DNA from: Thermoanaerobaculia bacterium
GTDB lineage: Bacteria; Acidobacteriota; Thermoanaerobaculia; Multivoradales; Multivoraceae
Assembly: GCA_963664405.1 (NCBI GenBank)
Contig: OY761158.1
Coordinates: 2,016,001 to 2,080,000, forward strand
Direction: 5' to 3'
Length of the DNA: 64,000 nucleotides
Part shown: in pieces, positions 1,325-63,636 of the stretch
Layout of the letters: each line of letters opens with the position of its first letter
How positions within the stretch are numbered: position 1 is the first letter of the stretch
Notes under the pieces: generated by a model
The model's database searches: none
Told to the model about the DNA's origin: nothing
What the model saw: the letters and a program-made list of their open reading frames with translations, nothing else
Made by a program: the position numbers and the translations under genes

Positions 1325-2664
1325 TGAGAACTATGCTCGCTATTCTCCTGCTGGTCGCCGCCTCGGCCAGCTCGGGCCAGGAGGATCTCGACCGTTTCGT
1401 CGTCGAGATGAACCTCCAGGAAGCAATTGGATCTCTGGAACGGCAGCCGATTCGCCTCAGCGAAGCGCTCGACGAGGCCCTCGAGCAGAGCATCGAGATG
1501 GCCCTAGCTCGAGCCGACGCCCAGAGCGCTCGTGACAGTCGATGGGCGTCGGATGCTTCGCTCTTCCCCTCCGTCGAGGTCGGTCTCTCGGCGAGCTCCA
1601 CCAACGGCCGGGTACAAGGCAGCTTCGGCGAGCTTCGTGATGTCGACTTCAACACCCGCTACCGAGGGGCCGCTTTGGTCTATCGAGCGAACATCGCGGC
1701 GAGACTCAAGGAGGCTTTCGCGTACCGACAGAGCGTGCAGGCCGCCCAATTCGACCAGCTCAATACCGAACAGCGTCTGATTCTGCGCGTTGTCGAGCTT
1801 TACCAGGACCTACTCCTGGCCGGCGTCGCAGTCGACATCACTCACGACGTGGTCGAAGGCAGCGAGCAGTTTCGAAGACTCATTCAGGCGCGAGCTTCCG
1901 GTGGCCTGGCGATTGGCGCCGACGTAGCTCGTGCCGAGGCGAAATTGGCGGTAGATCGCCAGGAGCTGATCCGCGCCCGCAACGAGTTGGTGAAAGCGAG
2001 CACGCGCCTAGCGGTGGTGCTCAGGCGTGACGTCGATGTTCTACTCGTACCCTTTGAGGATCGCTTAGCTCCGTCTTCGTTCGCCAAACCCTCCACTCTG
2101 GACCCACTGTCGAGGCCCGATGTTCAAGCGGCGGATCGACGAGCCGAAGCCGCCGGACGGCTCGTATCGTCAGCCAAGTGGGAGCTCTATTCTCCCGAGC
2201 TGCGAGCGGAGCTCCGGGCGTTGGAGATCGGTGAGAGCACCGACAATCTCGAAGGCGGTGACGAGAGCGCCGCCTTGGTGCTGTGGAACCTGTCGCCGGT
2301 AGCTTTCGGCCACATCCGCGAGCGCCGAGCGGAGGAGAGCCGGGCCCAGTTGGAGCTCGCCGAGATCGAAGATCGCGCAGCAGGAGAGATCCGTCGAGCG
2401 GAAGAGGATCTTGCCGGCGCACGGGATCGCATTCCCCTTGCCGGCGACGGATTCCGTGCCGCCAACGACACACTCAGACTCAGCGAGGCCCGCTTCAGGG
2501 CCGGCACCGCGATCGCACTAGAAGTTCTCGACGCCCAGGATGTACTCGCGCAGGCGCGCTTCAACCTCGCCCGCGCGATCATCGACTACAACTCGGCCCA
2601 GGCTCACCTGCTCGCGGCCTCCGGCACGCTCGATCGCTCCTCGATCCTAGCCAACCAGGATTAG
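1324..2664 (+). CDS. TolC-family outer membrane efflux protein
   Basis: Signal peptide, two OEP-like repeats, RFRAGTAIALEVLDAQ and YNSAQAHLLAASG; translationally coupled to the adaptor. Confidence 0.88.
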   Translation: MRTMLAILLLVAASASSGQEDLDRFVVEMNLQEAIGSLERQPIRLSEALDEALEQSIEMALARADAQSARDSRWASDASLFPSVEVGLSASSTNGRVQGSFGELRDVDFNTRYRGAALVYRANIAARLKEAFAYRQSVQAAQFDQLNTEQRLILRVVELYQDLLLAGVAVDITHDVVEGSEQFRRLIQARASGGLAIGADVARAEAKLAVDRQELIRARNELVKASTRLAVVLRRDVDVLLVPFEDRLAPSSFAKPSTLDPLSRPDVQAADRRAEAAGRLVSSAKWELYSPELRAELRALEIGESTDNLEGGDESAALVLWNLSPVAFGHIRERRAEESRAQLELAEIEDRAAGEIRRAEEDLAGARDRIPLAGDGFRAANDTLRLSEARFRAGTAIALEVLDAQDVLAQARFNLARAIIDYNSAQAHLLAASGTLDRSSILANQD

Positions 2665-4319
2665 AAGAAGAGCTGTACCCACTCTCCGTCGAACTCCGCG
2701 AGGCGCGATCGGATGGGTCCTTGGATCGGCTCCCCAAGCCCCTTGCGCCAACTGTTGACCGCCGCCTCCAGTCGCTTGACCACCTTGGGGTTCTCTTTCG
2801 CCAGATTCGTCGACTCGCCGGGGTCCGCATCGAGGTCGTAGAGCAGCGTCACTTGGCCGAGAGTGGGCTCTGTCGACCAACCGTCGGCGGGAGGGGTCAA
2901 TCGCTGCCCAGCATTGTCCATGTCCGCAGGCCTCAGGTCTGTCCGGTTGTGCTTGATCAGTTTCCAGCGCTTGTCTCTGACCGCGAGGGTGGGTCCCGAT
3001 CTCCAATAGAGATACTCGTGCGGCCTCCCCTTTCGCTTACCCTCGACAAAAGGTAGCAGGTTGACGCTGTCCTCGGTCTTGACCTCTTTACCAGCGGCCG
3101 CGGTGAACGTAGCCAGCAGGTCGAGTGTGCTCACCGGCTCGGAGTAGACCTTTCCCGAGGGGAGCCGGGCCGGCCAGCTCATGATGAGGGGCACCCGCAC
3201 GCCACCCTCGTGGTGGTACGCCTTGAAGCCACGGAGCGGCGCGTTCGAGCAGGCACCACGGTTGGAGTCGGTACAACCATTATCGCTGGCAAAGACGATC
3301 AGAGTGTTCTCGAGCTGATCGATGGTCTCGAGCGCCGCCACTACGCGGCGTACGCTTTCGTCTAGCGAGGAGACCATAGCCGCAAACACACGGGTCCGCT
3401 GGTCCGCGACGTCGCGGTAATTCTCCAGATAACGCGCCGTCGCCTGCAGGGGCGTATGCGGTGTCGTGTGACTGAGATAGAGAAAGAACGGCTCATTCGG
3501 GTGGCCTTTGATGAAGTCGACGGCCTCGGCGCTGAAGACGTCGGTCAGATAGGCCTCGACCTGCACTTCGTCGAAACCGCGAAGCACTTTGTTGCCCCGC
3601 TTCGTCGGCCCGGATTCCCCACGCAGAGAACCGTATTCAACCCCCGGCTTTCGCGAGTCGATAAAGATGCTGCCCCCCTCGAGCACACCGAAGTACTCGT
3701 CGAAGCCGCGACTCATCGGATGGTAGGGCCTGGGCTGGCCCAGATGCCACTTGCCGACCATGCCGGTGGCGTAGCCCAACGGCTTCAACCGGTCCGCAAG
3801 GGTGCGCTCCTCGAGTCGTAGACCGACCGAGCGATCGCGCCCCACCGGGTTGAACTCCCAGCCATGGCGCTGCTGATGGCGCCCGGTGATCAGGCCCGCG
3901 CGCGACGGGCTGCACACCGGATGACTCACATACCCCTCGGTGAATCGAACACCTCTGCGGGCCAGGGCATCGATCGCGGGTGTCTCGTTGATCTTGCTGC
4001 CGTAGATGCCGACATCCCCGTAGCCGAGGTCGTCAGCGAGAATCAGCACGATATTGGGCGCGCGATCTTCTTGGAGCCCCGCGAGGGGGGCCACGGCGAG
4101 GACGCCCACCGAAAGGGCAACCAAGATGGGAAGAGACTTGGGCCATCTAGACCAGCGTTTCCAAAGTTCGCGCACAGATCTCGGCCCCTTCTGCCCGCTG
4201 GCGGCGTTGCGCCTCCTCGATATATTGCCCAATATGCCTGCGTCGGCGCGCCTGGCCAGCGAACAGAATGACCTCGAGCTATTGCACACGAACTTTGGAA
4301 ACGCTGGTCTAGTCATCAT
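2661..4319 (-). CDS. Secreted Cys-type sulfatase (paralog 2) with a 54-codon in-frame palindromic insertion near the N-terminus
   Basis: PNIVLILADDLGYGD, CSPSRAGLITGR formylglycine motif, GKWHLG. Start set at ATG 4319 (GGGGAG RBS upstream), not 4472; GTG 4175 is an alternative start. Confidence 0.9.
   Translation of the reverse strand: MMTRPAFPKFVCNSSRSFCSLARRADAGILGNISRRRNAASGQKGPRSVRELWKRWSRWPKSLPILVALSVGVLAVAPLAGLQEDRAPNIVLILADDLGYGDVGIYGSKINETPAIDALARRGVRFTEGYVSHPVCSPSRAGLITGRHQQRHGWEFNPVGRDRSVGLRLEERTLADRLKPLGYATGMVGKWHLGQPRPYHPMSRGFDEYFGVLEGGSIFIDSRKPGVEYGSLRGESGPTKRGNKVLRGFDEVQVEAYLTDVFSAEAVDFIKGHPNEPFFLYLSHTTPHTPLQATARYLENYRDVADQRTRVFAAMVSSLDESVRRVVAALETIDQLENTLIVFASDNGCTDSNRGACSNAPLRGFKAYHHEGGVRVPLIMSWPARLPSGKVYSEPVSTLDLLATFTAAAGKEVKTEDSVNLLPFVEGKRKGRPHEYLYWRSGPTLAVRDKRWKLIKHNRTDLRPADMDNAGQRLTPPADGWSTEPTLGQVTLLYDLDADPGESTNLAKENPKVVKRLEAAVNSWRKGLGEPIQGPIRSRLAEFDGEWVQLFF
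4147..4312. repeat. MITE/REP-like palindromic element, family A copy 1
   Basis: Perfect 24-bp inverted repeat CTAGACCAGCGTTTCCAAAGTTCG (4147-4170 / 4289-4312); G4150..C4309 = 160 bp flanked by TA; core ~87% identical by eye to 56039-56140 on the opposite strand. Confidence 0.9.
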
Positions 4320-4338
4320 GCGACTCCCCCTTGTAAAG

Positions 4339-4956
4339 TCACGGCGACGAGGCTCGGTCCAAGGCCTCACGAAGCGCACGGGCTCGCTCCCAGGCCGGGC
4401 CCGGCGACTTTGGTGTAGCGTTCTCGTAGACGGGTTGGGCATGCAGACAGCCGAAGACGGGGCCCTCCGCATTCAAGACTTCGTGAACCTGACTCGCCCA
4501 CGCCTCGAGATCGGAAAACTCGAATACCGACTCAAAGCCGCAAGTGCGAGCCATCTGCGCAAAATCCACCGCCCTGCCACCGCGAAGCGCGGCAGAACCG
4601 GGCGTATCCTGCGCCCCGGTGACCTCGTAGACGCCGTTGTCGAAGAGAAGCACGATCAAGTTCTTCGGCCGCTGCGAGGTGATCGTCACCAGCGAACCCA
4701 GATTCATCAGCATCGATCCGTCCCCGTTACAGACGACAACTCGCCGATCCGGCTGCGCCAGAGCCAACCCCAGCCCCACCGATGTCGCCTGACCCATGCT
4801 CGAGGGGACATAGACCAGATCGAGCGGGTGGCTGCCGAGCCGCATCCACTCGCGGGCGCAGCCCATGGTTGTGACCACGATCTCGTCGCGTCGAGCCGTG
4901 TGCAAGACGCCGATAACCTCGGCCAGCGGCATCGCACCACGCTGCGCGGCAGTCAT
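4339..4956 (-). CDS. ThDP-dependent decarboxylase beta subunit (sulfopyruvate decarboxylase ComE-like)
   Basis: SMGQATSVGLG and GDGSMLMNLGSL...DNGVYEVTGAQ ThDP motif; ~205 aa; ATG 4956 overlaps the stop of the alpha subunit (ATGA). Confidence 0.8.
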   Translation of the reverse strand: MTAAQRGAMPLAEVIGVLHTARRDEIVVTTMGCAREWMRLGSHPLDLVYVPSSMGQATSVGLGLALAQPDRRVVVCNGDGSMLMNLGSLVTITSQRPKNLIVLLFDNGVYEVTGAQDTPGSAALRGGRAVDFAQMARTCGFESVFEFSDLEAWASQVHEVLNAEGPVFGCLHAQPVYENATPKSPGPAWERARALREALDRASSP

Positions 4957-5438
4957 GCCTTGCCCTCCGCGATCAACGCGACACCGGAGCGGCCCTCGTC
5001 CCTGCAACTTCGGTAGAGCCCGGCGATCTCGGCAAATTGCTCCGGTGCTGCGATCAGGCGGTACTCGAGCTTCCAGGCGTCGAGGATCGGCTCGGTGAAG
5101 GTGAGGCAGGTGTCGCCTGGCAGGGTGTCCTGGCTGAGGTAGCTGCGATAGCCGACGATCGCGAACAGCGGCAGCCGATAGTCGTGGAGCAGATTTCGCA
5201 GCGCGTCGCCTGACTCGAAGAGTCCGGTGCACTGAATCATCACCACCGGGCTCGCACCGCCCATATATAACCCGGCCGCAACTCCCCAGGCCTCGCCTTC
5301 GCGGCAGACCTGAATCACCTGGACCTGGGTCTCAGTGATCTCGCTCAACCACGGCCCCAGAGTGCTGTCGGGGATGGTGACGACATGAGTCACCTCGAGC
5401 TCTTCCAGCAGCGTAGCGATCTGGGCTCCTTCAAACAC
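4953..5438 (-). CDS. ThDP-dependent decarboxylase alpha subunit (sulfopyruvate decarboxylase ComD-like)
   Basis: VTIPDS, CREGEAWGVAAGLYMGG, IQCTG: PYR-domain motifs of ComD / phosphonopyruvate decarboxylase alpha; 161 aa; coupled to the beta subunit. Confidence 0.8.
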   Translation of the reverse strand: MFEGAQIATLLEELEVTHVVTIPDSTLGPWLSEITETQVQVIQVCREGEAWGVAAGLYMGGASPVVMIQCTGLFESGDALRNLLHDYRLPLFAIVGYRSYLSQDTLPGDTCLTFTEPILDAWKLEYRLIAAPEQFAEIAGLYRSCRDEGRSGVALIAEGKA

Positions 5439-5450
5439 GGTCGGAGTTCT

Positions 5451-6971
5451 CTAGAAGAAGAGCTGGACCCACTCTCCGTCAATCTCAGCGAGAGTCGATC
5501 GAATGGGCCCCTGAATCGGATCCACCAAATCCTTACGCCAAGTATCGAGCGCCGCTTCCAGGCGCTCGACCACCTTGGGGTTCTCTTTCGCCAGATTCTT
5601 CGCTTCGCCGACATCGCCTTCGAGATCGTAGAGCAGCGTCAACTGACCGTGAGGTGAGTCGGTCGACCAGCCACCCGCGGGAGGTGCCATTCGCCCATCC
5701 GCCCCGAGATCGGCGGGGCGGAAGTCGGTCCGATTGAACTTGATCAGCTTCCAGCGGTGGTCTCTCACGGCAACAGTCGGTCCCGATCGCCAGTAGAGAT
5801 AGTCGTGGGGTCGGCCCGCTCTCTTACCCTCGAGATAAGGCAGCAAGTTGACGCTGTCTTCGGTCGTGATCTCCTTGCCCGCGGCCGCGGTGAAGGTCGA
5901 TAAGAGGTCGAGGGTGATCACCGGCTCTGAGTAGATCTGACCCGCGGGAAGTCTCGCCGGCCAGCTCGCGATAAAAGGCACCCGCACCCCACCTTCGTGG
6001 TGATAGCGCTTGAAACCCCGAAGCGGCTCGTTCGAGCACGCACCGAGGATGTAGCCCGCACAGCCATTGTCGCTCGAGAAGACGAGCAGAGTGTTGTCGT
6101 ACTGGTCGATGGCCACCAGAGCCTCCACCACTCGGCGCACGCTCTCGTCCAGGGAGGCGACCATCGCGGCATAAACGCGCGTCCTCTGGTCGCTGATGTG
6201 GCGATAGTCCTCGAGGTAGCGCGCGGTTGCCTGCAGAGGTGTGTGCGGCGTGGTGTGGCTCAGATAAAGAAAAAAGGGCTCCTCGGCGTGACCCTTGATG
6301 AAGTCGACCGCCTCGGCGGTGAACACGTCGGTGAGGTAGCGCTCGACCTCGACCTCGTCGAACCCCCGAAGCACCTTATTGGGACGCACCGTCGGCGCCG
6401 GCTCGCCACTCAGAGAGCCGTACTCCACCCCCGGCTTGCGGGAGTCGATGAAGGTGCTGCCGCCCTCGAGCACACCGAAATACTGATCGAAGCCGCGGCT
6501 CATCGGATGGTAGGGCCTCTTCTGTCCCAGGTGCCACTTGCCGACCATCCCGGTGGCGTATCCCATCGATCTGAGGTGATCGGCAATCGTGCGCTCTTCG
6601 AGCCGCATGCCGGCGGAGGCATCGCGTCCGGCGGGGTTGAACTCCCAGCCGTGCCGCTGCTGATAGCGGCCCGTTACCAGCCCCGCCCGCGAAGGGCTGC
6701 AGACCGGGTGACTCACGTACCCCTGGGTGAATCGCACACCTCCAGCCGCTAAAGCGTCGATATTGGGGGTCTTGATGGTCTTGCTACCGTAGACACCGAT
6801 GTCGCCGTAGCCCAGATCGTCACCGAGGATCAGCACGATGTTGGGCGGTCGGGTCGCCTCAGCGGGTGCTTGCGCCGCTGCCCCCGCGATACCGAAGGCG
6901 GGACCGATGGCCAATGCAGTGAAGACGAGAGCCGCGCAGCGAAGGAAGATGCGGACCGAGATCAAACCCAT
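5451..6971 (-). CDS. Secreted Cys-type sulfatase (paralog 1)
   Basis: Signal peptide, PNIVLILGDDLGYGD, CSPSRAGLVTGR; colinear with paralog 2 to the shared C-terminus DGEWVQLFF. Confidence 0.93.
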   Translation of the reverse strand: MGLISVRIFLRCAALVFTALAIGPAFGIAGAAAQAPAEATRPPNIVLILGDDLGYGDIGVYGSKTIKTPNIDALAAGGVRFTQGYVSHPVCSPSRAGLVTGRYQQRHGWEFNPAGRDASAGMRLEERTIADHLRSMGYATGMVGKWHLGQKRPYHPMSRGFDQYFGVLEGGSTFIDSRKPGVEYGSLSGEPAPTVRPNKVLRGFDEVEVERYLTDVFTAEAVDFIKGHAEEPFFLYLSHTTPHTPLQATARYLEDYRHISDQRTRVYAAMVASLDESVRRVVEALVAIDQYDNTLLVFSSDNGCAGYILGACSNEPLRGFKRYHHEGGVRVPFIASWPARLPAGQIYSEPVITLDLLSTFTAAAGKEITTEDSVNLLPYLEGKRAGRPHDYLYWRSGPTVAVRDHRWKLIKFNRTDFRPADLGADGRMAPPAGGWSTDSPHGQLTLLYDLEGDVGEAKNLAKENPKVVERLEAALDTWRKDLVDPIQGPIRSTLAEIDGEWVQLFF

Positions 6972-18550: not shown

Positions 18551-20275
18551 TCAGTCCGACCCGGGCAGAGCGAAGACCCAGAGCACACCGCCAACGGGTA
18601 TGTAGGTCGACGTGCCGAGAAAACGATTGATGCCCCGGGTGTTGCGCTGAGCGTCGACTCCCCAGCCCGATTGGACGGCGACGTACTGCACACCATCGAT
18701 CTCGTAGGAAGAGGGAACGCCGGTGATTCCCGAGTTGGTGCGCTGCTTCCACAAGATCTCGCCCGTCTTGGCGTCGAAGGCGCGGAAGAATCGGTCGCCG
18801 GTGCCGCCCATGAAGACCAGGCCACCGCCGGTGGTGAGGACCGGCCCCCAGAGCTGGAGGTCGAACTCCTGGGTCCAGACTCTCTTGCCGGCATCGATGT
18901 CCCAGGCCTGGAGCTCGCCGACGTGATCCCAGCCGTCGCGCAACCTCATCTTCCCTTCCACGCCGGTGAACGTGCGACCGGGAACGTACTCGACCTCTTC
19001 GCCCTCCATGGTGGTGCAGGTGTTCTCGTTCGCCGGAATATAGAGCAGGCCCGTCTTCGGATTGTAGGCTGCCGGTGGCCAGTTCTTGCCACCCGAGAGA
19101 GACGGGCAGAAAGTGACTTCCTTGCCGGTACCGGGGGTGTGGTCGGGATCGTAGGAGGGTCGTCCCGACTTCGGATCGATCGACGTGAATGCATTCTGGT
19201 AGACGTAGGGTGCCGCGTCGATGAAGCCGATGGACTTCTTCTTGCGCTCGAGGATCCACAGATAACCGTTGCGGCCCGGATGAACCAGCGCCTTGCGAGT
19301 CCGGCCGTCCCGCTTGACGTCCATCAGGATCGGCGGGTCGACTTCGTCCCAGTCCCAAGAGCCGTTCTGGTGGTACTGGTGATGTCCGCGTAGCTTGCCC
19401 GTGTCGGCGTCGAGCGCGATGACCGAAGTGGCGTAGAGGTTGTCGCCGGGGCGCGTGTCGCCCATCCAGGGGCCGCCGTTACCAGTGCCCCAGTAGGTCA
19501 GATTCAGCTTAGGGTCGTAGGTGCCGGTGACCCACACCGGAGCTCCGCCGGTGCGCCAGGTGTCGCCGGGCCAGCTCTCGTTTCCCGGCTCGCCGGGGCC
19601 GGGGATGGTGTAGGTCTTCCAGACCTCGTCTCCCGAGTCGGCATCGAGCGCGGTGACGAAGCCGCGAATCCCCCACTCCCCTCCGGAGACGCCGACCATG
19701 ATCTTGCCGTCCACCGCCAGCGGCGCCATCGTCATGTAGTAGCCGATGGAGTAGTCCTCCACTGCCTTGTTCCACACCACCTTGCCGGTTGCCGCGTCGA
19801 GAGCGACGACCTGGGCATCCACCGTCGCAATGTAGACCTTGTCCTCCCACAGAGCGACACCCCGGTTGGTTGGGTGCATCTGCTGCAGGTCCTCGGGGAG
19901 GTCGTGTACGTAGCGCCACAGCGGGTTGCCGGTGCGAGCGTCGAGCGTGATGATCCGGCTGCCAGGGGTGGTGATGAACATGATCCCGTCGTTGACGATC
20001 GGTGGCGACTGGTGGCCTTCGTTGGCGCTGGTCGAGAAGGTCCACAGCGGCTGGAGGGAAGCGACGTTGGAGGTGTCGATCTGCTCCAAGGGGCTGTAGC
20101 CCCAGCCGTCGTAGGTGCGCCGATACATGAGCCAGTTTTCCGGCTCCGGTGCGAGCAGCCTCTTCTGGGTCACCGGGCGATAGGCGGGCGCCTCCGCAGC
20201 GACAAGCGAGGAGGCGACAAACGACGAGGTGACCAGTGCCACAGCGGGCAGGACGACTTTAGTGATGGGCAACAT
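18551..20275 (-). CDS. PQQ-dependent dehydrogenase (alcohol-type fold, no vicinal CC, D-x-D motif)
   Basis: ENWLMYRRTYDGWGYSPL, GGEWGIRG, GTGNGGP, WDWDEVD, GVQYVAVQSGWG. Confidence 0.9.
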   Translation of the reverse strand: MLPITKVVLPAVALVTSSFVASSLVAAEAPAYRPVTQKRLLAPEPENWLMYRRTYDGWGYSPLEQIDTSNVASLQPLWTFSTSANEGHQSPPIVNDGIMFITTPGSRIITLDARTGNPLWRYVHDLPEDLQQMHPTNRGVALWEDKVYIATVDAQVVALDAATGKVVWNKAVEDYSIGYYMTMAPLAVDGKIMVGVSGGEWGIRGFVTALDADSGDEVWKTYTIPGPGEPGNESWPGDTWRTGGAPVWVTGTYDPKLNLTYWGTGNGGPWMGDTRPGDNLYATSVIALDADTGKLRGHHQYHQNGSWDWDEVDPPILMDVKRDGRTRKALVHPGRNGYLWILERKKKSIGFIDAAPYVYQNAFTSIDPKSGRPSYDPDHTPGTGKEVTFCPSLSGGKNWPPAAYNPKTGLLYIPANENTCTTMEGEEVEYVPGRTFTGVEGKMRLRDGWDHVGELQAWDIDAGKRVWTQEFDLQLWGPVLTTGGGLVFMGGTGDRFFRAFDAKTGEILWKQRTNSGITGVPSSYEIDGVQYVAVQSGWGVDAQRNTRGINRFLGTSTYIPVGGVLWVFALPGSD

Positions 20276-22437: not shown

Positions 22438-23565
22438 ATGACGAAACAGTGCTTTTTCCGAGGTTCGATTCGATCTTTCGTAATGCTGGGGCTTGTTGGT
22501 GCGGCCCTGGGGGGTGCCGCCTTCGTAGGCGCCGAGACACCCAGAATGGACAGCGGCAAGCCGGATTTTTCGGGGACCTATGAACTCACCACTTTGACAC
22601 CGTTCACACGCGATCCGAAGCTGGGTGAGACGAAGACGTTCACACCGGAGGAGGTGGAGGAGCTCAAGCGTCTCTCGCATTCGCGCGTCGACCAAGCCGC
22701 GGCGGTGATCGATCCCGATCGTGATGCGCTTGCGGCGCTCGAAGGGAAGGCGCGCGAGGGAGGAGTCGATCGCTCAGGCAGTTTTACCCCAGGTAGTCAT
22801 GACTTCTTCTGGTTCGACTGTGGCGGGCAATACTGCGACCTGTCCCAGGTCAACGGCGAATACCGCACTTCGATCATCATCGATCCGCCGAACGGTCAGT
22901 TGCCTGCCGTCACCGAGGAAGGCAAGGCACGGCGAGCGGCCATGAGATCTCCGGGCCGGCCGGGGAAGTACCCGGGTGAAGCATGGTGGCTGGAAGAAGG
23001 GCTGGATCCCTTTGGAAATCCCGAGGGCATGGGGCTGGGCGACAGGTGTATCTACTCAGGCGTTACGGTGCCCATGCGTCCCGTTGTTTACAACAACATG
23101 AAAACCATCGTGCAATCCGACGATCACGTGCTGATCATGGTTGAGTGGATGCATTGGGGAAGGGTGGTCAGACTCAGGTCCGAGGGGCGCCCCGCCGAGC
23201 ACCTGCCGGAGTACATGCGCTCCCTTGGCGGCGATTCCATCGGCTGGTGGGAAGGGGATACCTTGGTGGTGGAGACGACGAACTTCCTGGCAGGGCCAAG
23301 GGTCCCGCGAGAGGGCTTGCGCGTCGTTGAACGCTTCAGTCCTCACGATGAGGGCAGTCTGCTCTACAACTTCACGGTGTATGACTCCGACTACGAATCG
23401 CCCTACACCGGTGAGTTCGCGTGGCCCAAGAGTGAAAAACGGTTGTATGAGTACGCTTGTCACGAGGGCAACTACGCGATGTCGAACACCTTGCGCGGCG
23501 CGCGAGTGCTCGAGCAAAAGTGGATCGAGAAGAATGGCCCGCCAAAGGCAAGGAAAGCGGAGTGA
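22438..23565 (+). CDS. Secreted hypothetical protein ('PDFSG...YEYACHEGN' family)
   Basis: GGAGG RBS; GKPDFSGTY, SIIIDPPNGQLP, GDRC, GDSIGWWEGDTLVVETTNF, YEYACHEGNY; homologous to 21123-21962. Confidence 0.8.
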   Translation: MTKQCFFRGSIRSFVMLGLVGAALGGAAFVGAETPRMDSGKPDFSGTYELTTLTPFTRDPKLGETKTFTPEEVEELKRLSHSRVDQAAAVIDPDRDALAALEGKAREGGVDRSGSFTPGSHDFFWFDCGGQYCDLSQVNGEYRTSIIIDPPNGQLPAVTEEGKARRAAMRSPGRPGKYPGEAWWLEEGLDPFGNPEGMGLGDRCIYSGVTVPMRPVVYNNMKTIVQSDDHVLIMVEWMHWGRVVRLRSEGRPAEHLPEYMRSLGGDSIGWWEGDTLVVETTNFLAGPRVPREGLRVVERFSPHDEGSLLYNFTVYDSDYESPYTGEFAWPKSEKRLYEYACHEGNYAMSNTLRGARVLEQKWIEKNGPPKARKAE

Positions 23566-23611
23566 ACATCTCCAAGTCGCGCGGCGTCGAGAGCGTCATG
23601 CAAGGTGGACG

Positions 23612-25585
23612 ATGGCGAACGGCGCCTCGATAGCCTGCACGGTAGCCGCTCTGGTGGGCTCCGCCGCCGTCTCCGCCCAGTACGGCGCGCAAAACGGTGA
23701 GTGGCCGCATCACGGCGGCGACCAAGGCTCGACGAGATACTCGGCGCTGAGCGAGATCGACGCCGGCGGCTTCTCTCGACTCGAAGTCGTGTGGCGGTGG
23801 GAGTCGGCCGACGAGCGACTCGGAGACGGCATCCCTTATGAGTCCGGAAACTTCCGATCCACGCCACTGGTGCTCGGTGACCTGATGTACGTGGTGACCT
23901 CCCACGGCCAGGTCGCCTCGTTGAGACCGGACACGGGTGAGGAACTGTGGGTCTACGACCCGAAGAGCTACGAGCGCTCACGCCCGACAGCCATGCCGCT
24001 CATCACCCGCGGCATCGAGTACTGGACCGACGGCGAAGAGGAGCGCATCTTCGTCGCGACGCTCGGGAAGCAGCTGGTCTCGATCGACGCCAAGAGCGGA
24101 CGAGTAGATCGCCGCTTCGGCGAAGACGGCATCGTCGACCTCTCCCAGGACCTGACCTCGCGCCCCTTCGTCGAGCGCGACATCACTAACGGAGCCCCGC
24201 CGATCGTGGTCGGCGATAGCGTCATCGTCGGCTCCAAGATCTTCGACTTCATGCTCAGAAACAACAGTCCGCCAGGACACATCCGCGCCTACGACGTGCG
24301 TAGCGGCAAACTCAAATGGCGCTTTCACACCATCCCGCAGGAAGGTGAAGAGTTCACCGAGACTTGGGAGGGTGACTCGTGGAAGAAGGCGGGCAATGCC
24401 AACGCCTGGGCGCCGTTGAGTGCCGACCCCGAGCTCGGTTATGTCTACATCCCCACCTCGACCCCGACCAACGACTATTGGGGGGGCGAGCGCCATGGTG
24501 ACAATGTCTACGCCGAGAGTCTGGTGTGCCTCGACGCCGAGACCGGCGAGCGAATCTGGCACTTTCAAACCGTCCATCACGGAATCTGGGACTACGACAT
24601 CGCCTCGGCAGCCAATCTGATCGACGTGGTGGTCGAGGGTCGGCTTATCAAAGCGGTGGCGCAGGTTTCGAAGACCGGCTTTACCTACGTCTTCGACCGA
24701 GCGACCGGTGAGCCGTTATGGCCAATTGAAGAGCGGCCCGTAAACAGCGCAACCACGGTACCGGGAGAGAAGCTGTCGAAAACGCAGCCCTTTCCGACCA
24801 AACCGCCGCCCTTCGACCGCCAGGGCATGAGCGGGGACGATCTCATCGACTTCACGCCGGAGCTCAGAGCGGAGGCTCTCGAGGCCACGAGGGACTACAT
24901 CCTGGCTCCGATGTTTCCTCCTCTGATCGTCATCGGCGACGGCGGCAAACTCGCCACCATCGTCATGCCCGGGGCCGGAGGCGGTGCCGACTGGCCCGGG
25001 GCCTCGATCGACCCGGACACCGGCCTTCTCTACGTCCTGTCGCAAACGCGCCCGAGCGGCATGGCCCTGGCCGAGCCGGACCCCGCTCGCTCGGATTGGA
25101 GATACGTCATCAGCCGTTCGCGGCCGGAAGGCCTCCAAGGCCTACCCTTCTTCAAGCCACCGTACACGCGCATCACCGCCCTCGATCTCGGCACCGGCGA
25201 GCTCGCCTGGCAGGTTCCGCATGGTCGGGGCCCCACTGAGCACCCCGCCCTAAAGCATCTGGAGCTGGGGCCTCTCGGGACCTTGGGCCCTCGCGAAGGC
25301 GGCCTGTTGGTGACCAAGACGCTGCTTGTGACCATCCTCGCCAAAGTCGATGAGAGCGCCTACTTTGGCCGAACATCGAGCGACCGAGGGAGGGTAGACG
25401 GCTCCACCCTGCAGGCCTACGACAAGACGACAGGGGAGCTCCTGGCCGAGGTCGACGTCGACACCCATCTGCACGGCGCACCGATGACCTACCTACACCA
25501 GGGCCGCCAATACATTGCGGTCGCCGGCGGCGGGAGCGGGGAAGAGAAGGCGGAGCTGGTCGTCTTCGCCCGTCCTCGAGACTGA
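23612..25585 (+). CDS. PQQ-dependent dehydrogenase, glucose/quinate type (no N-terminal membrane anchor)
   Basis: WPHHGGDQGSTRYS, PPGHIRAYDV, VHHGIWDYD, WPIEERPV, SKTQPFP, KPPY, GAPMTY. Confidence 0.9.
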   Translation: MANGASIACTVAALVGSAAVSAQYGAQNGEWPHHGGDQGSTRYSALSEIDAGGFSRLEVVWRWESADERLGDGIPYESGNFRSTPLVLGDLMYVVTSHGQVASLRPDTGEELWVYDPKSYERSRPTAMPLITRGIEYWTDGEEERIFVATLGKQLVSIDAKSGRVDRRFGEDGIVDLSQDLTSRPFVERDITNGAPPIVVGDSVIVGSKIFDFMLRNNSPPGHIRAYDVRSGKLKWRFHTIPQEGEEFTETWEGDSWKKAGNANAWAPLSADPELGYVYIPTSTPTNDYWGGERHGDNVYAESLVCLDAETGERIWHFQTVHHGIWDYDIASAANLIDVVVEGRLIKAVAQVSKTGFTYVFDRATGEPLWPIEERPVNSATTVPGEKLSKTQPFPTKPPPFDRQGMSGDDLIDFTPELRAEALEATRDYILAPMFPPLIVIGDGGKLATIVMPGAGGGADWPGASIDPDTGLLYVLSQTRPSGMALAEPDPARSDWRYVISRSRPEGLQGLPFFKPPYTRITALDLGTGELAWQVPHGRGPTEHPALKHLELGPLGTLGPREGGLLVTKTLLVTILAKVDESAYFGRTSSDRGRVDGSTLQAYDKTTGELLAEVDVDTHLHGAPMTYLHQGRQYIAVAGGGSGEEKAELVVFARPRD

Positions 25586-33805: not shown

Positions 33806-33845
33806 CTAGGCTCCAGAAATGATGGCTATCATTTCCTCCGCCTAG
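33806..33845 (+). terminator. Possible terminator hairpin after the ThDP enzyme gene
   Basis: CTAGG-N5-GAAATGAT ggct ATCATTTC-N5-CCTAG starting just after the stop, followed by TTGCCTTTT. Confidence 0.4.
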
Positions 33846-33933
33846 TTGCCTTTTGGCGCCGAGGACGGCGCACTTCGGCTCTGCTTCCTATTCGCTCCGG
33901 GAAACGGCTCAGAACGAATACTCGGACACGCTC

Positions 33934-34130
33934 CTAGCCTGGATCATTCATGAAGCTCCTACTACGGTGCCGCAGCTGCCCGAATCTACTGCGTTGCGCT
34001 CTGACTGGGCGTCCCCGTCGCGCCCCTCGACGTATTGCCCAATACGCCTGCGGTGCTCTCGGTCGCGACGCCTTGTATCTTCGGGCATCTGCAGCACCTC
34101 GCTACGGACCTCATGAATAGTCCAGGCTAG
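33934..34130. repeat. MITE/REP-like palindromic element, family C
   Basis: Arms CTAGCCTGGATCATTCATGA / TCATGAATAGTCCAGGCTAG; core CCTCGACGTATTGCCCAATACGCCTGCG matches the family A core; right CTAG contains the YaiI-family stop codon. Confidence 0.85.
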
Positions 34131-54792: not shown

Positions 54793-56010
54793 ATGTTCGA
54801 TCTGCTGAGGAGTCTTAAAGTCGTCGACTTGACGACCATCGTTCTCGGGCCTTACGCCACCCAGACCCTGGCCGACTTCGGGGCCGAGGTCATCAAGGTG
54901 GAGCCGCCGGGCGGCGACATTCTGCGAGCCGTTCGACCGGGCCGCCGCAAAGACCTGGGAGTCCAGTTCCAGAACTTCAATCGCAACAAGCGCTCCCTCA
55001 CGATCGACCTCAAGCAGGTGCGCGGGCGAGAGGTGTTGCATTCACTCGTCGAGAAGTCGGATGTGGTCGTGCACAACATGCGGAGCCGATCGGCCGCGTC
55101 GCTAGGCGCTTCTTACGCCGAGCTGTCCGCCTGCAATCCGAAGCTCGTTTACTGCTATTCGGCCGGCTATGGCGACAGTGGACCAGATCGTGACGCGCCG
55201 GCCTATGACGACATCATTCAGGCACGGTCGGGTCTCGCGACTTTGAACGCGGACGCCACCGGGGCGCCGCAATTCGTGCGCACCATCGTCGGCGACAAAG
55301 TCGTGGGGCTACACCTGGCCATTGCGGTGCTGGCCGGAGTCGTTCACTTCCAGCGGACAGGACAGGGGACCTGCATCGAGATACCGATGCTGGAGAGCAT
55401 GACCGCGTTCCTGCTGGCCGAGCATCTTGCCGGTCATAGCCTGATTCCGCCGGAGGGCGATCTCGGGTACAGCCGGCTCACCTCTCCCAGCCGTCGTCCG
55501 TATCCGACCAAGGATGGTTTCGTGGCGATCCTGCCCTACAGCACCCGGCACTGGACGCGTTTTTTTACGGCCAGCGGCCGAGCCGATCTCGCCAATGACC
55601 CGCGCGTGCTCGATCCCGAGAAACGGAGTGAGAACATCGATGATCTCTATAGCGAAGTCGCCAAGCTGGCGTTGGGGCGTACCACCTCGGAGTGGCTGGA
55701 GTTGATGGCGGAGCAGGACATTCCGTGCGCGCGCGTCAACGGCCTCGCGGATCTCTTTACCGACTCCCACCTGGAGGCAGTGCAGCTCTTCGAGCGAGTG
55801 AGCGACCCGGAGTTGGGTGAGATCCAACAAGTACGATCTCCCTATCAGGTCGATGGGGCCACCTACGGCGCGGGTTCCGCGAACACGGTCGCCCCCTGCC
55901 TCGGCGAGCACACCGACCAGGTTCTCGAGGAGCTCGGCTATTCGGAACAGGAGATTTCAGATCTTCACGCCGAGAGCGTGGTGACGTCGGCAGCCAAGCG
56001 AGATTCCTAG
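54793..56010 (+). CDS. Family III CoA-transferase (CaiB/BaiF)
   Basis: GPYATQTLADFGAEVIKVE, NRNKRS, AYDDIIQA, LGEHT. Confidence 0.94.
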   Translation: MFDLLRSLKVVDLTTIVLGPYATQTLADFGAEVIKVEPPGGDILRAVRPGRRKDLGVQFQNFNRNKRSLTIDLKQVRGREVLHSLVEKSDVVVHNMRSRSAASLGASYAELSACNPKLVYCYSAGYGDSGPDRDAPAYDDIIQARSGLATLNADATGAPQFVRTIVGDKVVGLHLAIAVLAGVVHFQRTGQGTCIEIPMLESMTAFLLAEHLAGHSLIPPEGDLGYSRLTSPSRRPYPTKDGFVAILPYSTRHWTRFFTASGRADLANDPRVLDPEKRSENIDDLYSEVAKLALGRTTSEWLELMAEQDIPCARVNGLADLFTDSHLEAVQLFERVSDPELGEIQQVRSPYQVDGATYGAGSANTVAPCLGEHTDQVLEELGYSEQEISDLHAESVVTSAAKRDS

Positions 56011-56172
56011 CGTGGTGTCTCCGACATGGCTTGCCAAGAGCTCGAGGTCATTCTGTTCGCTGTCAAGGAGCGACGAGGCAGGCATATTGGGAATATGTCG
56101 ACGAGTCGCGACGACGGCAGCGGGCAAAAGGGGCCGAGATATTCGTAAGCCATGTCGGAAACACGGCACTAA
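56007..56172. repeat. MITE/REP-like palindromic element, family A copy 2
   Basis: TA-flanked G56010..C56169 = 160 bp; arms include TCCGACATGGCTT / AAGCCATGTCGGA; core homologous to 4177-4280 (inverted); starts on the CoA-transferase TAG. Confidence 0.88.
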
Positions 56173-62184: not shown

Positions 62185-63636
62185 GGCGGATTCAACTGGT
62201 CGTCGCAACATCTCGTGATGGAGGTGTTTCGATGGGAGTTGGCAAGTGTCAGGGTGCGATTCGAGCGATGCGTGGCCAGATGCGGTCACCTGGCCGGCCC
62301 TCGACAGCGCGGCGCGAGGACCGGATCCGGTTCTGGGAGACGATCGCTCGTGGGGCGTCCAGCGAGGACGCCGCAACAGAGGCTGGGGTGTCGCCGGCTG
62401 TCGGGTCGAGATGGTTCAGGCAAGCTGGTGGAATGCGACCTATCTCGTTGGCTCCGGTGTCGGGGCGTTATCTGTCGTTCGCCGAGCGTGAAGAGATCGC
62501 CATCCTTCACGCTCAGCATGTTGGGGTACGTGAGATCGCTCGCCGCCTGGGTCGTTCACCGTCGACGATTTCGCGGGAGCTGCGCCGCAACGCGGCGACT
62601 CGCAGCCGTGCCGTAACTTATCGGGCCACGACTGCGCAGTGGCACGCGGAGCGGCGCGCCAGCCGTCCGAAGGTCTCCAAGCTTGCCGCGAACGATGCCT
62701 TGCGTGAGTACGTGCAGAACCGCCTCGCCGGCGTGATCGCAAGGCCTGACGGGGAGCTGGTGCCGGGTCCGGATGTGCGTTGGATCGGCCGTCGGCACGG
62801 CCGTCGCCAGGATCGGCGTTGGGCGAAATCCTGGAGTCCGGAGCAGATCTCGAACCGGCTTCGGATTGATTTCCCCCATAATGAGTCGATGCGGATCTCT
62901 CACGAGGCGATCTACCAAGCGCTCTACATCCAAGGTCGAGGAGCCCTCAAACGCGAGCTCGTCGCGTGCCTGCGAACCGGGCGAGCGCTACGAGTGCCGC
63001 ATGCGCGAACCCGGGGGAGAGGCAAGAAATTTGTAACTCCGGAGATCATGATCAGCGAACGCCCCGCCGAAGCCGGCGACAGGGCCGTGCCGGGTCACTG
63101 GGAAGGCGACCTGATCGTCGGGCTCGAGAGCTCAGCGATCGGGACCCTCGTCGAACGCACTACGCGGTTCACGATGCTGCTGCACCTGCCCCGCATGGAA
63201 GGGCACGGGACCGAATCGAGGGTGAAGAACGGGCCGGCCCTCGCCGGGCACGGCGCCGAAGCCGTCCGTGACGCGATCGCGGTGTCAATCACCACGCTGC
63301 CCGAGCAGCTCCGCCGGTCCTTGACCTGGGACCAGGGCGCCGAGATGGCTCAACACGCTCAACTCCGCGTCGATACCGGCCTCGCGATCTACTTCTGCGA
63401 CCCGCACAGCCCCTGGCAGCGGGGCACCAACGAGAACACCAACGGACTACTACGCCAGTACTTCCCGAAGGGCACCGACCTTGTCAGATACTCCTGCGAC
63501 GACCTCGCCGCGGTCGCGCTCGCACTCAACGGCCGACCCCGCAAGACCCTCGGCTGGAGAACCCCTGCCGAAGTCTTCGATGAGCTTGTACACTCTGCTC
63601 ACCAAGGCAACGCTGCGACGACTCCTTGAACCCAAG
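62185..63636 (+). mobile_element. IS30-family insertion sequence
   Basis: Imperfect 26-bp IRs GGCGGATTCAACTGGTCGTCGCAACA / CGCTGCGACGACTCCTTGAACCCAAG around the transposase. Confidence 0.88.
62232..63629 (+). CDS. IS30-family DDE transposase
   Basis: LGRSPSTISRELRRN, WSPEQI, ISHEAIY, GHWEGDL, TWDQGAE, PWQRGTNENTNGLLRQYFPKG. Confidence 0.95.
   Translation: MGVGKCQGAIRAMRGQMRSPGRPSTARREDRIRFWETIARGASSEDAATEAGVSPAVGSRWFRQAGGMRPISLAPVSGRYLSFAEREEIAILHAQHVGVREIARRLGRSPSTISRELRRNAATRSRAVTYRATTAQWHAERRASRPKVSKLAANDALREYVQNRLAGVIARPDGELVPGPDVRWIGRRHGRRQDRRWAKSWSPEQISNRLRIDFPHNESMRISHEAIYQALYIQGRGALKRELVACLRTGRALRVPHARTRGRGKKFVTPEIMISERPAEAGDRAVPGHWEGDLIVGLESSAIGTLVERTTRFTMLLHLPRMEGHGTESRVKNGPALAGHGAEAVRDAIAVSITTLPEQLRRSLTWDQGAEMAQHAQLRVDTGLAIYFCDPHSPWQRGTNENTNGLLRQYFPKGTDLVRYSCDDLAAVALALNGRPRKTLGWRTPAEVFDELVHSAHQGNAATTP

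Follow-up and report, generated by a model that had tools for sequence, protein, structure and literature searches.

An apparently recent IS630-type MITE lies in frame in a predicted sulfatase leader, and its peptide recurs in other leaders

Within a 64,000-nt stretch of DNA, called the window here, we found a sulfatase gene that carries a short palindromic MITE directly behind its start. The MITE is placed after codon 3 and lengthens the gene by 162 nt, or 54 codons, none of them a stop. We think it likely that this is a recent IS630-type MITE, carried in frame in the sulfatase leader as a tolerated passenger, with the mature enzyme presumably unchanged. In window coordinates, the gene and the features described with it are on the minus strand (Table 1).

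Table 1. Coordinates of the sulfatase gene, the MITE and related features in the window
Feature	Position	Strand	Remarks
Sulfatase gene with insert	2661..4319	-	552 aa; Pfam Sulfatase PF00884 4e-60; CSPSR active-site motif
Original signal-peptide remainder (h- and c-regions)	4077..4145	-	WPKSLPILVALSVGVLAVAPLAG; now residues 59-81
MITE proper	4150..4309	.	160 nt, near-perfect palindrome, no transposase; aligned with L010, L001a and L004
Left terminal inverted repeat including CTAG	4147..4170	.	24 nt; CTAGACCAGCGTTTCCAAAGTTCG
Right terminal inverted repeat including CTAG	4289..4312	.	24 nt
TA target-site duplication, copy 1	4148..4149	.	inside CTAG
TA target-site duplication, copy 2	4310..4311	.	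in sulfatase codons 3-4 (ACT AGA)
In-frame GTG, alternative start proposed earlier	4173..4175	-	in hairpin stem
Shine-Dalgarno-like GGGGGAG	4324..4330	-	read from sequence; 4 nt before ATG 4319, 7 nt before ATG 4316
Upstream gene, TPP enzyme like sulfopyruvate/phosphonopyruvate decarboxylase	4339..5232	-	stop 19 nt before ATG 4319
Sulfatase paralogue 1, without MITE	5451..6971	-	506 aa
Probable MITE-like remnant	34016..34052	.	38 nt; 87% identical to apical part of MITE
Type-B MITE	56008..56171	.	~107-nt core (87%) in common with the 4147 element; different ~28-nt ends

Results

A near-perfect palindrome behind the sulfatase start

The window sequence from 4147 to 4312 is a 166-nt near-perfect palindrome with TA flanks within CTAG. 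Its two 24-nt arms are 100% complementary and 118 nt apart, and the 21-nt MITE end occurs twice in the window, in these arms only, where 100 shuffles gave an expectation of 0.00. Folded as RNA, the whole 166 nt is taken up by one hairpin (-106.2 kcal/mol, z = -9.5), a stability equalled by none of 200 shuffles. These repeat, shuffle and fold analyses confirmed the first-pass annotation, which had described a 160-bp element with perfect terminal inverted repeats and flanking TA just after the sulfatase start. No transposase-like ORF was found in the 160-nt MITE. Three of its six frames are free of stops, while the frame that uses TAG as a codon is closed at both ends. Rfam gave no match over the whole window at the gathering threshold and none over 4050-4420 at E<=1. 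An outward promoter or an intrinsic terminator within the MITE is not supported, because a promoter and terminator scan of 3900-4600 was empty inside it.

The reading frame continues through the insert

Translation of 2661-4319(-) yields an open 552-aa product that begins with MMTR, continues with 53 residues (PAFPKF...WKRWS) and RWPKSLPILVALSVGVLAVAPLAG, and then enters the sulfatase domain. In-silico excision of 4150-4311 (162 nt) gives MMTRWPKSLPILVALSVGVLAVAPLAGLQE. Both results bear out what had been claimed from the letters, namely that the frame stays open despite the element and that removal of the element plus one TA (162 bp) restores a short leader. On the same strand, the insert-bearing gene is preceded by genes for a sulfatase and a TPP decarboxylase-like enzyme, and it ends this run.

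An AlphaFold2 model built from 37 aligned sequences has a mean pLDDT of 84.5; residues 1-47 score below 50, residues 49-56 and 63-75 form short helices, and from about residue 88 the enzyme is folded with confidence. In this model the insert is predicted to lie outside the enzyme fold. A hydrophobic window (KD 2.93) begins 7 residues past the insert and, with helix 63-75 of the model, marks a putative signal-peptide core behind it. An SRRRN motif in the insert was rejected by eye as a Tat signal because ~25 residues separate it from the hydrophobic core.

The insert is missing from close homologues

Among sulfatase homologues the best match is P0002, a 494-aa protein with 98% identity; it starts MTAFLRTLVTFSIGVLAVVPLSG / MTAFLRTLVTFSIGVLAVVPLSGLQEDRAPN and contains nothing equivalent to the 54 residues. 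It too opens with M-T, and its first ~14 residues differ from those of the window protein. None of the 120 sulfatase homologues listed matched the 55-aa MITE peptide, the best E-value being 2.9, in C-terminal regions. The conserved motif PNIVLIL begins at residue 88 of the window protein, compared with a median position of 38 among the 114 homologues having the motif, of which only one fused 824-aa protein has a start beyond 88. Since neither the 98% orthologue nor the 120 homologues carry the 54 residues, the insertion in the sulfatase is, as judged from these protein comparisons, recent, with an empty site known at the protein level only. The possibility that the segment is an ancestral N-terminus, raised earlier as what would speak against an insertion, is contradicted by the same comparisons.

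The MITE shares its ends with full IS630 elements

A contig search of genomes with a 19-nt piece of the MITE end returned at least 10 loci. Among the matches listed, four loci (one alphaproteobacterial MAG) have the identical 24-nt end including CTAG. In L003, L006 and L009, this end bounds an element of ~1.28 kb, to whose ends the left 24-nt repeat of the window MITE is identical, and each element encodes a 392-aa transposase with 98.7-100% aa identity between the copies. The transposase matches the NCBIfam model NF033545, 'IS630 family transposase' (1.4e-60), and the Pfam domains DDE_3, HTH_32 and HTH_29, and the full IS has 74-76% DNA identity to annotated IS630 transposase genes of rhizobial plasmids. 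The proposed IS630-type attribution is thus supported directly, as the same 24-nt end bounds full IS630 elements with an NF033545 transposase. At L005, positions 1114-1137 form a perfect 24-nt IS630-type end with an interior unlike the full IS, and the 3.6-kb locus contains neither a transposase nor a second arm; this is perhaps a solo end, perhaps a derivative of some other kind. L002, L007 and L008, which lack CTAG, a second arm and a transposase, were treated as chance 19-mers.

Short copies of the window MITE, which the first-pass annotation had expected to exist, were found among the matches listed: L010 (179 nt, 88%), L001a (166 nt, 90%) and L004 (166 nt, 83%), their sources being one Acidobacteriota MAG and one Vicinamibacteria MAG. 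All four type-A copies (the window, L010, L001a and L004) have CTAG on both sides, which is consistent with TA duplication inside CTAG. IS630/Tc1 elements are described as duplicating TA with a preference for CTAG (PMC2170065). A search of a plasmid collection gave no MITE match, and tblastn with the L006 transposase (1e-3) found no IS630 transposase in the window. Several features that characterise an IS630-family MITE were found in the window element: matching terminal inverted repeats, TA/CTAG duplication, small size without a transposase and a protein-level empty site. On this sequence evidence, it is an IS630-family MITE.

A sister MITE with other ends

The window holds a second MITE, here called type B, which coincides with the TAG stop that ends a CoA-transferase ORF (54793..56010), is upstream of a nitroreductase ORF, and is 96% identical to L001 2717-2883. 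One Acidobacteriota MAG contig has at least two type-A copies and one type-B copy. The combination of a single core with two different pairs of ends suggests that MITE families exchange their ends. A third trace, the intergenic segment after a TPP enzyme gene listed in Table 1, is probably a MITE remnant. Nearby, a 55-nt repeat at window 33842-33896 is 85% identical to L010 2706-2760, where in the Acidobacteriota MAG it lies 30 nt from the MITE.

The window has a GC content of 63%, and its MITEs are 88-96% identical to the Acidobacteriota MAG copies. Elsewhere in the window, a 465-aa ORF (62232-63629) is hit by the model for IS30 family transposases (NF033563, 2.8e-73). ORFs 18551-20275 and 23141-25585 are PQQ-dependent dehydrogenase-like with a below-cutoff match to the 'acido-empty-quinoprotein' model; such sub-threshold matches to acidobacterial NCBIfam models, taken with a VWA-domain match, hint weakly that the window is of acidobacterial origin.

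The same peptide occurs in the leaders of other proteins

A search with the gene-frame MITE peptide against 5.8 billion protein clusters, restricted to longer proteins, returned 33 candidates, six of which contain the peptide. In four of the six, it stands directly after the likely start (M-T, M-S-T or M-A) and directly before a hydrophobic core. These four leader cases beyond the window represent three gene families; frame and orientation of the insert are the same in all, and only 2-3 codons separate it from the likely start: P0126 (DUF3604, 693 aa) reads ...EMT-[MITE]-LLAPILGVVVAAALTGAC, P0128 (amidohydrolase, 474 aa) reads MST-[MITE]-CSAKALRPAGWAIALLLAGAVATPAQ, and the homologous TPR-protein pair P0127 and P0129 reads MA-[MITE]-TVLFIVFMLTVA... 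Together with the window sulfatase, they share the peptide at 59-93% identity. Across the five N-terminal cases, the insert has a net charge of +10 to +16 (+12 in the window), and a 12-residue window with a mean hydropathy of 2.3-2.9 begins 1-12 residues past the insert. In-frame coding insertion elsewhere, which the first-pass annotation had proposed to count, is therefore present, as the same peptide in the leaders of P0126, P0128 and P0127/P0129. P0129 has 26 further residues within the MITE peptide relative to P0127, at the same leader site, which indicates that the MITE changed further after insertion while the frame stayed open. Five proteins underlie this recurrence in leaders, which we regard as modestly new.

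In the remaining two proteins, P0122 and P0124, the peptide is at the C-terminal end. A HMMER search with the 55-aa peptide against 1.84 billion representatives at 50% identity gave four matches, of which these two are real and the other two, repeat proteins at 29-32% identity, were rejected. With representatives clustered at 50%, insert-bearing proteins are hidden behind insert-free relatives. As a control we used the peptide of the other open frame (LDQRF...NAGL), which would result from CTAG in the CTA-Gxx phase, by far the more frequent one in ORFs. It was found in three proteins among 25 candidates: a low-complexity protein with no recognised domain, a protein with the peptide 17 residues before its C-terminus, and a third whose C-terminal tail contains it. 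Among the proteins found with either frame's peptide, none has a MITE copy inside a recognised mature domain.

Only one orientation was seen in leaders because three of the four type-A copies, if reversed in the xCT-AGx phase, would bring in a stop. At the DNA level, the L010 copy coincides with the TAG stop that ends a 2-hydroxyacid dehydrogenase ORF, and the L001a and L004 copies are between ORFs. CTAG occurs 51 times in the window, 0.24 of the mononucleotide expectation; inside window ORFs it is almost always in the CTA-Gxx phase or at a stop, and xCT-AGx is rare. A concentration of xCT-AGx sites at gene starts is unsupported from the window, where few of the 51 CTAGs are near starts.

Probable consequences for translation, and other readings of the insertion

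The 30-bp base of the hairpin begins 5-8 nt after the start codons, and this position makes lower initiation likely. With the insert, 26.6 kcal/mol is needed to keep -20..+15 around ATG 4319 single-stranded, compared with 17.7 kcal/mol after in-silico excision, so that the initiation region is costly even without the insert; for the second ATG (4316), the opening cost is 31.4 kcal/mol with the insert and 16.0 excised. According to these folding calculations, the hairpin probably lowers translation initiation, and the size of the effect is uncertain. We infer that translation starts from ATG 4319 or 4316 and that the insertion reduces expression, and we assume that export and cleavage are retained with a 61-residue n-region.

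A more severe outcome is that the insertion is effectively a knockout, either because a hairpin at +5 to +8 blocks initiation or because a basic n-region of 61 residues prevents Sec targeting, with the open frame a matter of luck. The event is recent, as indicated by the perfect repeats, the TA duplication and the insert-free 98% orthologue; the opening cost rises by 9-15 kcal/mol; and a paralogous sulfatase 1.1 kb upstream could cover the function. Yet the Shine-Dalgarno sequence and the ATG are outside the stem, and the same frame, orientation and type of position in four other proteins from three families would be hard to explain as null alleles, particularly as P0127 and P0129 both retain the insert, one of them despite a further 26-aa change inside it. 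We therefore consider a knockout unlikely.

At the other extreme, the MITE family might be more than junk and act as a mobile 'leader module', whose translatable basic frame has become fixed time and again in Sec or lipoprotein leaders of unrelated exported proteins, behind the start codon and ahead of the hydrophobic core. If so, the hairpin on the initiation region and the basic n-region would tune the translation or export of secreted enzymes under selection, an idea that we rate as rather improbable.

It could also be that the MITE lies in the 5' untranslated region and is never translated, the true start being downstream, for example at TTG 4124 or GTG 4109. Such in-frame codons are present downstream of the MITE, and gene callers often extend ORFs across open frames. 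Against this, ATG ATG with a GGGGGAG Shine-Dalgarno sequence stands 2-3 codons before the insertion site, and in the other cases, too, an ATG precedes the MITE border by 2-3 codons, which is unexpected for random upstream starts. A start at TTG 4124 would leave a leader with no charged n-region and no Shine-Dalgarno sequence, and the orthologue P0002 likewise starts with M-T, so we hold an untranslated MITE to be very unlikely. Least probable is that the MITE supplies a new start at GTG 4175, as had been suggested in the first-pass annotation: this codon is in frame with AAGGGG ~9 nt upstream and would give a conventional-looking leader with a basic n-region of normal length (MRELWKRWSRWPKSL...), but it is disfavoured because it is buried in the perfect stem of the hairpin, where -20..+15 costs 48.0 kcal/mol to keep single-stranded as against 26.6 at ATG 4319, and it would be reachable only once upstream ribosomes have melted the hairpin.

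Discussion

The reading we favour is that of a tolerated passenger in the leader. An IS630-family transposase would have mobilised the 160-nt MITE in trans and pasted it into the TA of a CTAG at sulfatase codons 3-4, duplicating the TA. The gene stays open because 160 + 2 = 162 nt is a multiple of three and because the insertion has the xCT-AGx frame and the stop-free orientation. The n-region of the sulfatase's predicted Sec-type signal peptide would have grown by 54 residues, which are strongly basic and unstructured. On export, the leader would be removed together with the insert, and since export should remove it, the mature sulfatase would be as before. Reduced translation initiation would be the likeliest effect of the insertion, which may be too young to have been purged. 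The pattern of leaders and gene ends would most simply arise from a survivorship filter, in which insertions within genes persist only if they are in frame, free of stops and in a dispensable segment; the n-region of a cleaved leader would be such a segment, and one suited to a basic peptide.

In several respects the window MITE resembles known bacterial MITEs derived from IS630/Tc1-mariner elements, in that it is short, lacks a transposase, has IS630-matching ends with TA duplication in CTAG, and forms a hairpin over its whole length. It differs from these in being a new sequence family of GC-rich, probably Acidobacteriota-type, genomes, in that both of its ends derive from one IS end, and in having a sister MITE with a common core and other ends.

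The comparison with Rickettsia palindromic elements (RPEs), made in the first-pass annotation, holds in part. RPEs are described as palindromes of ~150 nt that lie in frame in unrelated protein genes and add a conserved peptide (PMC10969869). Recurrent in-frame insertion of a conserved peptide is common to both, here in few cases, all of them in leaders. The likeness is one of description and amounts to an analogy; the MITE has no match in Rfam, which is not known to include RPEs. In contrast to RPEs, the window MITE shows clear inverted repeats with a TA duplication, and its autonomous partner is known. The in-frame cases found here all fall in signal-peptide n-regions or at gene ends, and the majority of the DNA copies found are intergenic or on stop codons.

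In-frame MITE fusions are already documented, one of them in a signal peptide. A 2024 review characterises in-frame fusions by intragenic MITEs as 'not unusual' and RPEs as the extreme case (PMC10969869). In the Yersinia gene YPO1552, as reported for that one locus, a hydrophobic peptide from the RU-2/YPAL MITE provides the signal sequence itself (Delihas 2007), whereas the window MITE contributes a basic peptide ahead of an existing hydrophobic core, and does so in several genes. The QMITEs of Coxiella are described as overlapping gene ends, where they give stop codons or in-frame C-terminal extensions (PMC5896051), and L010, the type-B copy at 56008, P0122 and P0131 can be compared with these. 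The QMITEs are of another family and host, and signal-peptide insertions do not appear in the portion of the QMITE description compared here. Full-text searches, covering literature outside subscription journals, found no account of MITEs that insert repeatedly behind the start codon and ahead of a signal-peptide core.

Together, these observations offer a clean natural example of how a selfish element may sit inside a gene and leave the product unharmed, in a part that is presumably removed on export. Such leaders also provide a simple test system for how much n-region length and basicity Sec export tolerates. That four insertions, in different gene families, share frame, orientation and a place at leader codons 3-4 points to a rule for the survival of coding insertions by MITEs that target TA/CTAG. 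This rule would be useful for the annotation of GC-rich environmental genomes, in which such leaders give wrong starts and odd N-termini.
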